DNA of 40,341 nt. It comes from a virus (Duplodnaviria > Heunggongvirae > Uroviricota > Caudoviricetes). The notes beneath the pieces are model-generated. The model did not search any database, was not told the DNA's origin, and saw only the letters and a program-made list of their open reading frames with translations. Below are positions 26,088 through 28,964 of the stretch, piece by piece (within the stretch, counting starts at the first letter, position 1; the number at the start of each line of letters is the position of its first letter). A program made the translations under genes and the position numbers. The DNA is taken from IMG/VR virus record IMGVR_UViG_2619619135_000001, positions 1-40,341 of that record; one strand, written 5' to 3'.

Positions 26088-26123
26088 CCCCAGAAACGAC
26101 AAAACCCGCTCGACGGCGGGTTT
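26088..26123 (-). terminator. tR'-like intrinsic terminator upstream of the lysis genes
   Basis: Seen (minus strand): AAACCCGC-cgtcga-GCGGGTTT followed by TGTCGTTTCT, about 140 nt upstream of the holin start. Confidence 0.45.
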
Positions 26124-26210
26124 AAGCTGTGTGGCGAAGTAACCACTCTTAACACGATACAATAGTTTTTGCGTACGCGTTAACTTTTTATTATCCTCAT
26201 ACAACCTATA

Positions 26211-27365
26211 TTGTCCCCAACAAAAACGAAAAAAATGCCAAACCTAAAAATCAACCACGTTATTGTTCACGAGCTATTAAAAGAGAAAGATAAAGATTTT
26301 GACCACTCGAAACGATACAACCTGCGTGATTCTGAACTTGATAAAACAAACGCTGTTGTAATTTCCCTTGTTGAAGGGGTCGTTGCTCTTTATGGCTCTA
26401 AAGGCAACTCAGCACATTACGGTGTATTCAAAAGCGCCCCAAAAGAACAAGGTCCAATCCCGGTATTATTTGATCAGTATCACCAAACAGCAACTTCTCA
26501 ATCTATTGACTTTATTAACTTAACAAAGAAAATAATGGAACAAATGTATCATTCAGCCAAATCTCAATCTTGGTCTTCTGGAGGATACATTGTTTTTACT
26601 GATTATATTTCAGCAGGCATCAGATATTTTCTTGTAGCTATGATAAAAAAAACGAATGGAGTAACAATTAGCGAAAAACTCGAGCCAGAAGAAATGATAC
26701 ATCTGGAGTTAAATAATATTAACCAAGCTGCAAAAATAAATTTTCACTTATACTATCAATATCACCAAGCTGATGATGTTCAAAAAACAGAATTAAGCTA
26801 CTTAAGCTTCATCAACAAAACTACGGGACAGTCTGCTGCTGCATATTTCATCGCAGCTCTTGGGTGTGATAAGGGGATCGCATCAGCTGGAGCAACCCGC
26901 AAACTTCCAAATGAGGTAAAAAAGTTTTTTAAAAAACACAAAGAATTACGCCCTCATGCAAATGCAGTAAGAAACGCAGTAATAAAATATTTAGAATCCC
27001 AGTTCGGAAACAATTGCTCTGCAAAGCTTACAGATATTGAATCTATTTCTGCAACTCACATGGCATTTTTAGATGATGATAAAAAAGCCCCCCTAGTAAG
27101 AGAGCTCATGCAATATTTAAACAGCGAGGAGGTTAGAGTTCCTTCGGAGTTCGTCATAAATAAAACATCTCTTGACAAATTAAGGAATGTTATTTTCAAA
27201 GCAGATCAATATAGTTTTAATTTCGACAAAGATTTGCTTGGCATAACTACTGATGCTACAATTTTCTATGACGCTGAGCATGGGAATCTTACATTTAACA
27301 GACTCCCTATAGAAGCACAAAAAAAAATAAAAGATGCCTTAAAAGAAATGAATTTGTTAAACTGA
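26211..27365 (+). CDS. NdpA/YejK (NA37)-family nucleoid-associated protein homologue, moron gene A
   Basis: Seen: AT-rich ORF on the opposite strand to the late genes; track start is TTG at 26211, alternative ATG at 26235. Motifs match NdpA as I recall it: INHVIVHELLK, GGYIVFTDYISAGIRYFLVAMIK, SYLSFINKTTGQSAAAYFIAALG. Confidence 0.65.
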   Translation: MSPTKTKKMPNLKINHVIVHELLKEKDKDFDHSKRYNLRDSELDKTNAVVISLVEGVVALYGSKGNSAHYGVFKSAPKEQGPIPVLFDQYHQTATSQSIDFINLTKKIMEQMYHSAKSQSWSSGGYIVFTDYISAGIRYFLVAMIKKTNGVTISEKLEPEEMIHLELNNINQAAKINFHLYYQYHQADDVQKTELSYLSFINKTTGQSAAAYFIAALGCDKGIASAGATRKLPNEVKKFFKKHKELRPHANAVRNAVIKYLESQFGNNCSAKLTDIESISATHMAFLDDDKKAPLVRELMQYLNSEEVRVPSEFVINKTSLDKLRNVIFKADQYSFNFDKDLLGITTDATIFYDAEHGNLTFNRLPIEAQKKIKDALKEMNLLN

Positions 27366-27384
27366 GTTATAAAAGAAAAATAAA

Positions 27385-28605
27385 ATGAATCAGTTGAAAA
27401 TTGTAGTAGATTTATTTAGAAAATCTAAAACACCCCATTTCGACGGTGTTAAGTTTTCGGCGTCAATAGATTATACAACAGATATTAAAATGCTGTTGAC
27501 TACTATGCTAGATGATAATTTCAACGAAGGTTCATTCGATGAAATTGAAATTGATGGTTGCGAGATTTACGATGGAAATGATCTGCCTAATTCAGGAACC
27601 ACTTTAACATATTCATTTAAAGTCGCACGTAGAAGTGCAGATAGATTTTATGCTTCAAAAAGAGAGTTTATAGAAATTAATACTCTTCGAAAAGGCGTAA
27701 TGCCTAAGAACTATTACATTGCAGAAAGTGATTTTTATTCTTATGATGCCCAAAAGCCTGACTATATAATGACAATTGAAAAAATTTGTCAATTAATTTC
27801 ATGTTTATCGAACATAGCTCATTTCCACGATACCAAAAGTGATAGAAACACCAGTTTCTATCGCCTTGTTTTTGTACTACATTCAGAATCGAAATCAACA
27901 ACAGCAGTAATTGAAACTAATTTAACAGAGGAGGTCCTTGATATTGAAGACCTAAATATCAATCTTATAGCCAATTTATCTAAATCCGATGCAAGCAAAG
28001 ATAATCACTATCTTGAAAAACTGAACACATTCAGAAATACACTGATTGAATATATTTCAAAGACAAATGGCTCATTTATCAATATAATAAAAAACTGGAA
28101 CGATATCAATGAGTTATATAGCAACAACCTTGCTGTATATATGTCTGCATTCTCTTTCCATAAAACAAGAAAAGAGATTGCAGATGCTGAAATTGATTAT
28201 GCAGACAAAATATCTAAAGTCGTATCTGAAATAGCCAACAAAGCTTTAGCCATCCCTGTATCACTAGTTGCTGCAATATCGATATTTCAAATGACAGGGG
28301 AATTAGTTTCTATAGTGGCATTTTTAGGGATCTTATTGACATCTATTATTACTTATCTAGTCGCAGTGTCTCAAAAACGTCAACTTGAACGCATAATTCA
28401 TGCAAAAGATACCTTATTCGATACTATGATGAACAGATTGAGTGAAGAGCAAAATGAACTCAAACTCAGATTACAAATAGCTCAAATAGAGTTAAACAAA
28501 AATGAAGTATTCTGCATAAGAGTATTGGACTTAATGCGCTGCTTATCATGGATGCCAACATGTGTTGGCATATTAGCTTTATTAATAAATGACGTGCTAA
28601 TTTAA
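27385..28605 (+). CDS. Membrane-anchored protein of unknown function, moron gene B
   Basis: Seen: 19 nt after gene A; about 280-aa soluble N-domain then hydrophobic stretches (AIPVSLVAAISIFQ...VSIVAFLGILLTSIITYLVAV and C-terminal CVGILALLINDVLI); its stop overlaps the Q stop convergently. Confidence 0.65.
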   Translation: MNQLKIVVDLFRKSKTPHFDGVKFSASIDYTTDIKMLLTTMLDDNFNEGSFDEIEIDGCEIYDGNDLPNSGTTLTYSFKVARRSADRFYASKREFIEINTLRKGVMPKNYYIAESDFYSYDAQKPDYIMTIEKICQLISCLSNIAHFHDTKSDRNTSFYRLVFVLHSESKSTTAVIETNLTEEVLDIEDLNINLIANLSKSDASKDNHYLEKLNTFRNTLIEYISKTNGSFINIIKNWNDINELYSNNLAVYMSAFSFHKTRKEIADAEIDYADKISKVVSEIANKALAIPVSLVAAISIFQMTGELVSIVAFLGILLTSIITYLVAVSQKRQLERIIHAKDTLFDTMMNRLSEEQNELKLRLQIAQIELNKNEVFCIRVLDLMRCLSWMPTCVGILALLINDVLI

Positions 28606-28964
28606 ATATTGAGCATAAAACAAACACCTTCAATAAAACCAAGTGCGGCCTGCAATTCTTTTCTGACAGTACCATCAGAATAGTTACGCCTCTTCGCAAT
28701 TGTACGGAGCGAAATCCCGATAACAAAATGTGCAATGATCAGCTCATATTCCTCTGGTTTATGCTTTCGCAGTCTAGCCACACAACCATCAATCATAATG
28801 CCTTCGTCATCATCGCACTGAAGGCGTGACTTTTTACCGTGTGGTAAAAGCCCCTTGAAGCCTGCTGCTACCGGCTGCCAGTCCACACCACTGTTGTCTG
28901 CTGCAGCCCATGCACCCCAGCGGTCCAATACTTCATACATATCACGCATCAACTTTCTCCACAA
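28602..28964 (-). CDS. Late-gene antiterminator Q (short lambdoid-prophage Q family)
   Basis: 120-aa ORF with LDRWGAWAA...W..VAAGFKGL...RLQCDDDEG...GC.ARL...SDG...GFIEG, resembling the Q-like proteins of E. coli lambdoid prophages as I recall them; last gene of the early operon. Confidence 0.6.
   Translation of the reverse strand: MWRKLMRDMYEVLDRWGAWAAADNSGVDWQPVAAGFKGLLPHGKKSRLQCDDDEGIMIDGCVARLRKHKPEEYELIIAHFVIGISLRTIAKRRNYSDGTVRKELQAALGFIEGVCFMLNI

Follow-up and report, generated by a model that had tools for sequence, protein, structure and literature searches.

The present analysis concerns the late-gene control region of a lambdoid prophage, the 40,341-nucleotide DNA of IMG/VR record IMGVR_UViG_2619619135_000001 (the whole of this stretch is called the window below). 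The antiterminator gene Q of this prophage and the promoter-terminator unit in front of its late genes very probably constitute a standard lambdoid late switch, the two halves of which have been separated by a cassette. The window carries mostly minus-strand genes, in the right-to-left order RusA-like, KilA-N, DUF968 and Q, followed by genes A and B on the plus strand and by holin, lysozyme and Rz on the minus strand. The late unit is a module of ~90 bp at 26091-26190 (minus strand), in which a sigma-70 promoter (PR') is followed by an initial transcribed region of invariant sequence and by a terminator. It lies 2448 bp from Q, beyond the 2.43-kb cassette (~26192-28622) that is antisense to Q; the PR' unit is thus not immediately downstream of Q here (2.4 kb, with the antisense cassette between), as it is in cargo-free relatives. 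The features of the region are the following.

28602 to 28949, minus strand: Q antiterminator gene, 115 amino acids; PF06530 (Phage_antitermQ), E=1e-44; homologues start MRD...
28602 to 28622, minus strand: cassette-specific Q tail, the last 7 codons and the stop; left cassette junction at 28622/28623
27385 to 28605, plus strand: gene B, 406 amino acids, candidate effector; three C-terminal hydrophobic segments predicted by hydropathy; homologues in loci L044 and L091
26235 to 27365, plus strand: gene A, YejK/NdpA-like nucleoid-associated protein, candidate sensor; PF04245 (NA37), E=3.7e-46
26192 to 26197, plus strand: predicted -10 of the cassette promoter, TATCCT, in the cassette edge; weight-matrix score 9.0, predicted start near 26204
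26178 to 26183, minus strand: PR' -35, TTAACG, from the fixed-position promoter architecture
26171 to 26178, no strand assigned: palindrome GCGTACGC in the PR' spacer, candidate Q-binding element; 1:1 covariation with the Q clade
26169 to 26174, plus strand: predicted -35 of the cassette promoter, TTGCGT, inside the conserved module and overlapping the palindrome
26154 to 26159, minus strand: PR' -10, TATCGT; A at 26158 and T at 26154 invariant
26145 to 26150, minus strand: pause-element-like AAGAGT
26147, minus strand: predicted PR' start (A); Cappable-seq start at the homologous base of DLP12 in Escherichia coli K-12
26135 to 26144, minus strand: pause-site-like GGTTACTTCG
26124 to 26153, minus strand: invariant initial transcribed region GTTAAGAGTGGTTACTTCGCCACACAGCTT; invariant in alignment A1, exact in >120 viral contigs
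26091 to 26123, minus strand: tR'-like intrinsic terminator with an 8-bp stem, a 6-nt loop and an interrupted U tract
25623 to 25949, minus strand: holin, first late gene past the terminator; PF05106, E=5.7e-25

The preliminary description of this DNA held that Q and gene B end in overlapping convergent stop codons, which leaves no room for a late promoter directly downstream of Q, and that a minus-strand hairpin terminator lies ~140 nt before the holin. Both observations are borne out. Positions 28602-28605 read ttaa, which contains the stop of gene B (taa, 28603-28605, plus strand) and that of Q (tta, 28602-28604, minus strand, TAA on its own strand); the two overlap by 2 nt and the intergenic DNA amounts to zero. 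The hairpin stem spans 26123-26102 and its T tract runs to 26091, 143-150 nt from the holin ATG at 25949. The Q protein matches PF06530 over 115 of the 118 profile positions and, distantly, the Q21 structures 6P18/6JNX (E=0.004). Its start is most likely the ATG at 28949, which has GGAG 8 nt upstream and agrees with the MRD... start of the homologues, rather than the listed TTG at 28964.

Promoters were scored in bits with a simple sigma-70 weight matrix (PWM). A prediction around 26.1-26.3 kb, proposed as a check in the preliminary description, returned TTAACG-18-TATCGT on the minus strand and TTGCGT-17-TATCCT on the plus strand. The former (26183-26178 and 26159-26154), assigned here as PR', has a PWM score of 8.8 and is the top site within 210 bp. 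The hexamer that immediately precedes GTTAAGAG in the 55 unique junctions is TATCGT, TAATCT, TACTGT, TATGCT or TAGTGT, all of the form TAnnnT, with CAGTAT of the 1720a-02 type as the sole exception; the positions fixed in TAnnnT are those most important in a -10. The accompanying -35-like hexamers are TTAACG, CTAACG, TTAGCG, TTTACG, TTTACA and TTGTGT, at a spacing of 16-18 bp in most Q clades and of 19 bp in the 1720a-02 clade (Q1720). The mean PWM score at this fixed position is 6.1, compared with -5.4 for shuffles (95th percentile 3.6). Furthermore, TGTTAAGAGTGGTTACTTCGCCACACAGCTTAAACCCGCCG is nearly all invariant in alignment A1. The hexamer TATTGT (26164-26159) was also considered as the -10 and was rejected, as it shows no conservation in other clades.

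In the terminator, AAACCCGC (26123-26116) pairs with GCGGGTTT (26109-26102) around the 6-nt loop (~-12 kcal/mol); the tail that follows the stem is TTTTGTCGTTTCT (to 26091; UUUUGUCGUUUCU). The hairpin alone is unremarkable as a fold (z = -1.7), and it is judged significant because of its conservation: together with the preceding 50 nt it is unique in the window and is carried by 2557 of the 5426 complete genomes of E. coli. In Yokenella, Citrobacter (C. pasteurii) and Klebsiella the core is kept and different hairpin-plus-T-tract terminators occupy the same position. Such non-homologous terminators at one position across genera indicate that termination there is a conserved function. The stem begins at +25, and the predicted terminated RNA therefore measures ~50-55 nt. 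A leader RNA hairpin GUGGU...GCCAC, which shows two compatible substitutions, was rejected because it is broken by the variant GTGGTCACTTCGACAC of Yokenella, Citrobacter and Klebsiella.

BLAST searches of phage and E. coli collections gave many two-piece matches, consisting of Q and of a piece that starts exactly at 26101, with unrelated DNA between. Antisense cargo separates Q from the ~90-bp segment in SfII, cdtI, mEp460 and Stx2a_1447; the cargo of PhiR49_1 is a porin of the OmpD/NmpC type, and that of one E. coli chromosome includes a TIGR04255-family gene. The module stands cargo-free, 8 bp after the Q stop, in 7 loci, among them phages 1720a-02, PhiR49_2 and PPyecE, and cargo-free copies are also found in Klebsiella and Citrobacter pasteurii. 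The cryptic prophage DLP12 of E. coli K-12 carries it between nmpC and essD. IMG/VR was also scanned for exact matches to the invariant core, which added 120 further loci and brings the total set to 131. Of these, 110 have a PF06530 Q upstream of the module and on its strand, the remaining 21 having too little upstream sequence to judge. Q and the module are separated by 38 bp in 7 loci and by 626 to 3041 bp in the others, the gap taking >15 different sizes. Among species-representative genomes, the core was found in Escherichia, Shigella, Yokenella, Citrobacter and Klebsiella; the window itself matches Shigella flexneri SFBU0723. The module is located directly upstream of lysis genes and, in Stx2a_1447, upstream of the methylase-tRNA-stx2 late region. 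Genome records of phage 434B and of lambda hybrids contain the DLP12 block quuD-nmpC::IS5-module-lysis. In these phages, complete in other respects, Q is encoded ~2.9 kb away from the module, a layout consistent with Q acting in trans over kilobases.

A few of these loci deserve separate mention. Two module matches in S. flexneri SFBU0723 (CP182557.1; L137 and L143) have an upstream Q identical to that of the window and the same cassette edge except for one A in an A-run; the two matches stand either for a pair of related prophages or for a single region represented as overlapping loci. Three short contigs (L132, L135 and L142), binned as Chitinophagaceae, Bacillota and Erysipelotrichaceae metagenome-assembled genomes, contain an E. 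coli-type module with typical E. coli flanks and are most likely mis-binned enterobacterial prophage fragments. In the Stx2 phages Stx2a_1447/WGPS2 and 1720a-02 (L004 and L007), no PR'-like unit other than the module is present between Q and methylase-tRNA-stx2, and in Stx2a_1447 a two-gene antisense cassette separates it from Q. Typing that looks at the pR' region immediately after Q, as in PMC6266700, might overlook the module.

A connection between Q and the distant module is provided by an element of 8-10 bp in the PR' spacer, which tracks the Q clade 1:1, with no exception among 52 unique combinations of Q and junction in five clades:

Window type (Qw): GCGTACGC, 16 combinations
1720a-02 type (Q1720): GCGGTCCGC, 16 combinations
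QuuD type: TACGTACGTA, 15 combinations
QuuD-like, 81-85% identity: TACAATCGTA, 2 combinations
QuuD-like, 62% identity: TGTTATAACA, 3 combinations

The rule also holds in Yokenella, Citrobacter and Klebsiella, and the pairing persists where as much as 3 kb of variable cargo intervenes. The sequence classes that follow the terminator are, on the other hand, shuffled and common to several Q clades, which shows that recombination has reassorted the downstream half of the module relative to Q and never the spacer element. This is the pattern expected of a Q-binding element, and the spacer element, which in the form GCGTACGC occurs once in the window, is likely the binding site of Q. The Q-binding elements of lambda and phage 21 are likewise situated within the PR' promoter region and precede +1 (bioRxiv 10.1101/651190).

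Evidence for the start site comes from the copy of the module in DLP12. In the Cappable-seq data published for K-12 (Ettwiller et al. 2016, PMC4782308, supplementary file 1), the 826 bp between 576081 and 576907 contain a single plus-strand start. This start, U00096.2 576452, corresponds with a 777-bp offset to NC_000913.3 577229. It is the A that stands 7 nt past the TATGCT of the DLP12 module, and position 26147 of the window is the homologous base. A 1-nt error in the offset would leave the conclusion on the PR' start unchanged. The same prophage has a very strong plus-strand start (score 90) at NC_000913.3 576858 (L010 5359), 33 nt past the start codon of nmpC and directed away from that gene. 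This start is preceded by TATTAT at a distance of 7 nt, and transcription from it runs for ~370 nt in the direction of the PR' module with its terminator. Start-site and 3'-end evidence for the module was also sought in Adams 2021 and Sun 2021 for K-12 and was not found there.

The preliminary description had placed the late promoter and the qut site, displaced from Q, at 26.13-26.3 kb. Displacement to the far end of the cassette is supported by the occurrence of the same module adjoining Q in cargo-free phages, by the covariation of its spacer element with the Q clade, and by the DLP12 start on the predicted +1; the coordinates had to be narrowed to 26091-26190.

The region downstream of PR' bears some resemblance to that of lambda. 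The sigma-dependent pause at which known Q proteins are loaded falls at +16/17 for lambda, +18 for phage 21 and +25 for phage 82 (PMC9191641). Lambda PR' (L131 777-806) reads TAAATT-tgactc-AACGAT-G-GGTTAATTCG and the module (window 26159-26135) reads TATCGT-gtt-AAGAGT-GGTTACTTCG, such that A2 and T6 of the pause hexamer are shared and 9 of the 10 pause-site bases match. With +1 at 26147, AAGAGT spans -3 to +3 and the TTC/G step falls at +12/+13. The initial transcribed regions are alike although the Q families of lambda and the window are unrelated, which could be due to shared ancestry of a pause module or to convergence on a pause signal of RNA polymerase and sigma-70. We take this resemblance as a lead and not as a finding.

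It is worth considering here an alternative assignment, in which the late promoter is located upstream of the module in the cassette edge (GGGACA-16-GATAAT, 26217-26190, start ~26183), TAnnnT at 26159-26154 is the pause element, and the palindrome is a transcribed Q-binding site. This promoter was found by a consensus scan, the distance of ~18 bp from palindrome to hexamer suits a Q-binding element upstream of a pause element, and the hexamer, with its invariant A and T, could be a pause element just as readily as a -10. However, the sequences upstream of the module are non-homologous and contain no late-strand promoter at a fixed offset: the candidates are scattered in position and absent in some junctions, with none above 3.6 bits in L034 and L071. 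The conserved signal of the cassette edge is instead a -10 on the opposite strand. Moreover, the only K-12 start in the interval is 7 nt after the hexamer and not upstream of it, and the pause would fall at ~+36 to +40, far past the known positions of +16, +18 and +25 (PMC9191641). We consider this assignment improbable.

Another alternative is that the module is an independent small RNA (sRNA) gene or a stray terminator, the late genes being transcribed from a promoter at the Q/B junction (TTGAAG-17-AATATT, 28633-28605, minus strand, start ~28598) or by antiterminated early read-through. The junction match has a PWM score of 10.1, and the PR'-tR' RNAs of other phages act as sRNAs (StxS, PMC7547250). 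Such matches are nevertheless expected by chance, since the AT-rich cassette has 14 sites per strand at >=8.8, and this one lies within the cassette-specific, non-conserved tail of Q. The alternative also leaves unexplained the 1:1 covariation with the Q clade and the cargo-free adjacency to Q, and the roles of sRNA and PR' leader are not mutually exclusive. It is very improbable. As specific sRNA identities, StxS (PMC7547250) was rejected for the module because it belongs to another Q lineage (144-amino-acid Q). Pas was rejected because K-12 has the module without Pas genes. A scan of 25900-29000 against Rfam at E<=10 returned only noise, with no AgvB, AsxR, STnc100 or other curated family.

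Several observations weigh against the assignment of the module as the late switch of Q. The fixed-position promoter of the Q1720 clade is poor (19-bp spacer, CAGTAT, PWM 1-3), the U tract is interrupted (UUUUGUCGUUU) and termination may be leaky, and no clear A2/T6 pause element is present downstream of +1, the only candidate being AAGAGT at -3 to +3. The covariation of Q and spacer could partly reflect linkage instead of recognition. The mapped start belongs to the homologous DLP12 copy and not to the window prophage, it stems from another Q clade than that of the window, and its signal is weak (relative score 1.7, near the cut-off of the study), as would be expected for an RNA of ~50 nt; it is modest evidence. 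The 777-bp offset between U00096.2 and.3 is based partly on the essD coordinates of the older version, and it is corroborated only by the strong start at 576081, which then lands 7 nt after TATTAT. Finally, the 3' end of the DLP12 terminator was not found in the K-12 Term-seq supplementary text (Adams 2021), a text that is possibly incomplete.

With the module as the late switch, the following mechanism can be proposed. Q would be made from early read-through transcription and would act in trans on the unit at 26091-26190. Without Q, PR' would give only an RNA of ~50 nt ending at the terminator (26123-26091), and with Q, RNA polymerase would read through into holin, lysozyme, Rz and the remaining late genes. 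The invariant initial transcribed region would hold the promoter-proximal pause. The right edge of the cassette, in turn, would supply a -10 (TATCCT) that pairs with TTGCGT in the PR' spacer, resulting in a divergent promoter that overlaps both PR' and the candidate Q element.

This predicted cassette promoter, TTGCGT-17-TATCCT, is the best plus-strand site upstream of gene A and would give a 31-nt leader to the ATG at 26235. A TAnnnT hexamer is present at exactly 17 bp in 13 of the 16 independent cassette junctions of the Qw clade and at 18 bp in one more; the background for the 17-bp spacing is 3.3% (binomial P = 3e-17). The -10 hexamers of the other cassettes are TAAGAT, TAAACT, TATATT, TAGAAT, TACAAT, TATTTT, TATGCT, TAAAAT and TATTAT, the non-critical positions being variable. 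The suggestion in the preliminary description that the late promoter is divergent from a cassette promoter can accordingly be made in a stronger form, as the plus-strand -10 is conserved in position. The two predicted promoters interpenetrate, each -35 lying in the spacer of the other, and the candidate Q-binding element covers the cassette -35; the promoters may compete, and Q may repress the cassette. In the Q1720-clade junctions, inspected by eye, a cassette promoter of this geometry was not found.

A more far-reaching version of this proposal is that, in lambdoid phages with a PF06530-type Q, the gap between Q and its target is a dedicated, recombination-swappable defence slot. In the Qw clade each cassette would plug its own -10 into a -35 overlapping the Q-binding element, and Q binding would occlude the defence promoter and shut down an abortive-infection system at lytic onset of the prophage itself; the PR'-tR' RNA of ~50 nt, which does not vary between Q clades, is perhaps also a trans-acting sRNA in lysogens. 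We regard it as speculative and on balance unlikely.

Regulation could also be exerted by reciprocal antisense transcription, in which read-through from Q would silence the cassette during lytic growth and cassette transcripts would dampen Q in lysogens, in the manner of paQ, the known anti-Q antisense RNA of lambda. That read-through leaving Q is antisense to genes B and A, as the preliminary description stated, follows from the gene geometry, which forces the overlap; no plus-strand terminator-like site is present beyond the gene B stop inside Q, and cassette transcripts may run antisense into Q. A precedent is found in phi80: supplying Q lowered the expression of taiEcA, a defence gene that lies antisense inside the late operon (PMC11364771). 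However, Q is silent in a repressed lysogen, which leaves nothing to dampen, and the strong late transcript from PR' never crosses the cassette. Hairpins also stand inside the cassette: a minus-strand terminator-like one followed by UUUUUU at 27107-27085 in gene A, a palindrome of 9-11 bp at 27839-27864 in gene B that is terminator-like on both strands (-12.5 kcal/mol and z = -3.9 on the minus strand, 27862-27841), and a plus-strand terminator-like one at 28552-28571, near the end of gene B. The two on the minus strand could limit unmodified read-through from Q. Reciprocal antisense control is thus possible but not probable, and the overlap of promoters at the candidate Q-binding element is the more specific regulatory feature of the two.

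That overlap is one of three points that go beyond the preliminary description, the others being the location of the left cassette junction inside Q and the recurrence of the site as a cargo hotspot. The G+C content of the cassette is 30-39%, compared with 49-59% in the flanks. Nucleotide homology within the Qw clade ends at 28622/28623, 21 nt before the Q stop, and the C-terminal tails of Q past GF(I/V)xG differ for each cargo type. The swappable unit accordingly extends from a point within the final codons of Q to a point shortly before the PR' -35, bringing its own Q tail and stop. The abutting convergent stops are explained by the position of the left junction inside Q, and no function of the overlap needs to be invoked.

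Gene A most likely starts at the ATG at 26235 and not at the TTG at 26211, as the NA37 profile begins 9 residues later; the leader before this ATG is A-rich and without an obvious Shine-Dalgarno sequence. Gene B begins 20 bp after gene A, and a crude hydropathy scan places its three hydrophobic 19-mers at residues 283-321 and 383-401. Gene B matches nothing in Pfam or PADLOC, and no match was obtained for the A/B pair in PADLOC v2 (2023), a library without a model for type II PANGU. According to a 2026 preprint, pairs of an NA37-like and a transmembrane protein are type II PANGU abortive-infection systems (bioRxiv 10.64898/2026.04.06.716658). By analogy, the A/B pair is likely a member of this type, with a putative role in anti-phage defence.

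At least 20 cassette types occupy the slot between Q and PR', all of them AT-rich (31-45% G+C) and all antisense to Q except for one and part of another. Diverged pairs of the A/B type (NA37-like with a partner of ~400 amino acids) fill it in L044 and L091, the three versions being 22-28% identical. Other cargo includes a KwaB-like protein with a membrane partner, PDC-M53A (SfII), a PDC-S20 KAP NTPase, an HNH protein, porins, and two cassettes that contain a DNA methyltransferase each, one of them Nsn-like and the other with a HEC-04-type ATPase. Several cassettes match models of known or candidate defence systems. Many two-gene cassettes of the slot, such as those of cdtI, mEp460 and Stx2a_1447 (a protein of ~300 amino acids plus a multi-transmembrane protein of 150-190), have no Pfam or PADLOC match. 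Elsewhere in the window, a trypsin-like peptidase of 300 amino acids (23727-24629, minus strand; PF13365) matches the PADLOC candidate system PDC-S45 (E=1e-44). It lies in an island at ~23.6-24.7 kb with 37-40% G+C, between Rz and the next late genes and co-oriented with late transcription, which is probably a second defence or moron slot of the same prophage.

These results have several implications. Textbook Q late control is drawn as Q followed by PR', and in the present lineage, which is represented in about half of the complete E. coli genomes, including some Stx2a phages and DLP12 of K-12, the two are routinely split by exchangeable cargo. This layout affects how late promoters are located and typed, and thereby the determinants of stx expression. 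The covariation offers a ready set of five pairs of Q and site specificity in a Q family of which, to our knowledge, only one member has been studied. The slot is also a source of candidate defence systems, as several cassettes have no match in current defence libraries, and the overlap of promoter and Q element suggests a testable way in which a prophage could disarm its own abortive-infection system on induction.

The gene order of Q, antisense cargo and lysis genes has been known since the 1980s for DLP12 (nmpC), and also for PA-2 (lc). No paper placing PR' in DLP12 was found in a search that left most subscription journals outside, and the same holds for prior descriptions of a PR', element and tR' beyond the cargo, of the breadth of the hotspot, of the junction inside Q, of the covariation and of the overlapping promoter. 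In DLP12 (qsr') the layout is the same as in the window, with a PF06530 Q, antisense cargo, the same module and then holin, lysozyme and Rz. The differences are the Q clade and its spacer element (TACGTACGTA in DLP12) and the cargo, which in DLP12 is a porin with its own long upstream region and here a defence pair with a promoter overlapping PR'.

Compared with the Q switch of phage 21 and other lambdoid phages, the window shares the Q protein family PF06530, a constitutive sigma-70 promoter, a clade-specific spacer element, a short leader to an intrinsic terminator, and late genes directly after it; it differs in the 2.4 kb of antisense cargo between Q and the PR' unit. Its Q is only distantly related to Q21 (E=0.004), and Q21 binds two direct 8-bp repeats, in contrast to the palindrome that forms the candidate element here; the text of the Q21 papers provides no promoter sequences for a direct comparison. 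The predicted leader of ~50 nt is shorter than those of lambda (194 nt) and of Stx phages (258 nt).

As regards the cargo, the stx morons (933W/Sp5, with the convergent sRNAs AsxR/AgvB) likewise place AT-rich accessory genes in the interval between Q and lysis (PMC4104026), but these are downstream of PR', co-oriented and Q-induced, whereas the cargo of the window is upstream, antisense and outside the late transcript. The likeness to type II PANGU (Pag2A, a YejK-like nucleoid-associated protein, and Pag2B, a transmembrane effector) is one of gene arrangement and domain: a two-gene operon in which the first gene encodes an NA37 protein and the second, starting 20 bp further on, a protein with hydrophobic segments near its C-terminus. 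The noncontiguous operon of phi80 (taiEcA) also has a constitutive defence gene antisense to Q-controlled transcription (PMC11364771). There, however, the late transcript crosses the defence gene, whereas here only early read-through would do so, and the contact with Q would be made at the overlapping promoters. The parts of the switch are those of the classical Q system, and the layout is a recurrent variant of it.

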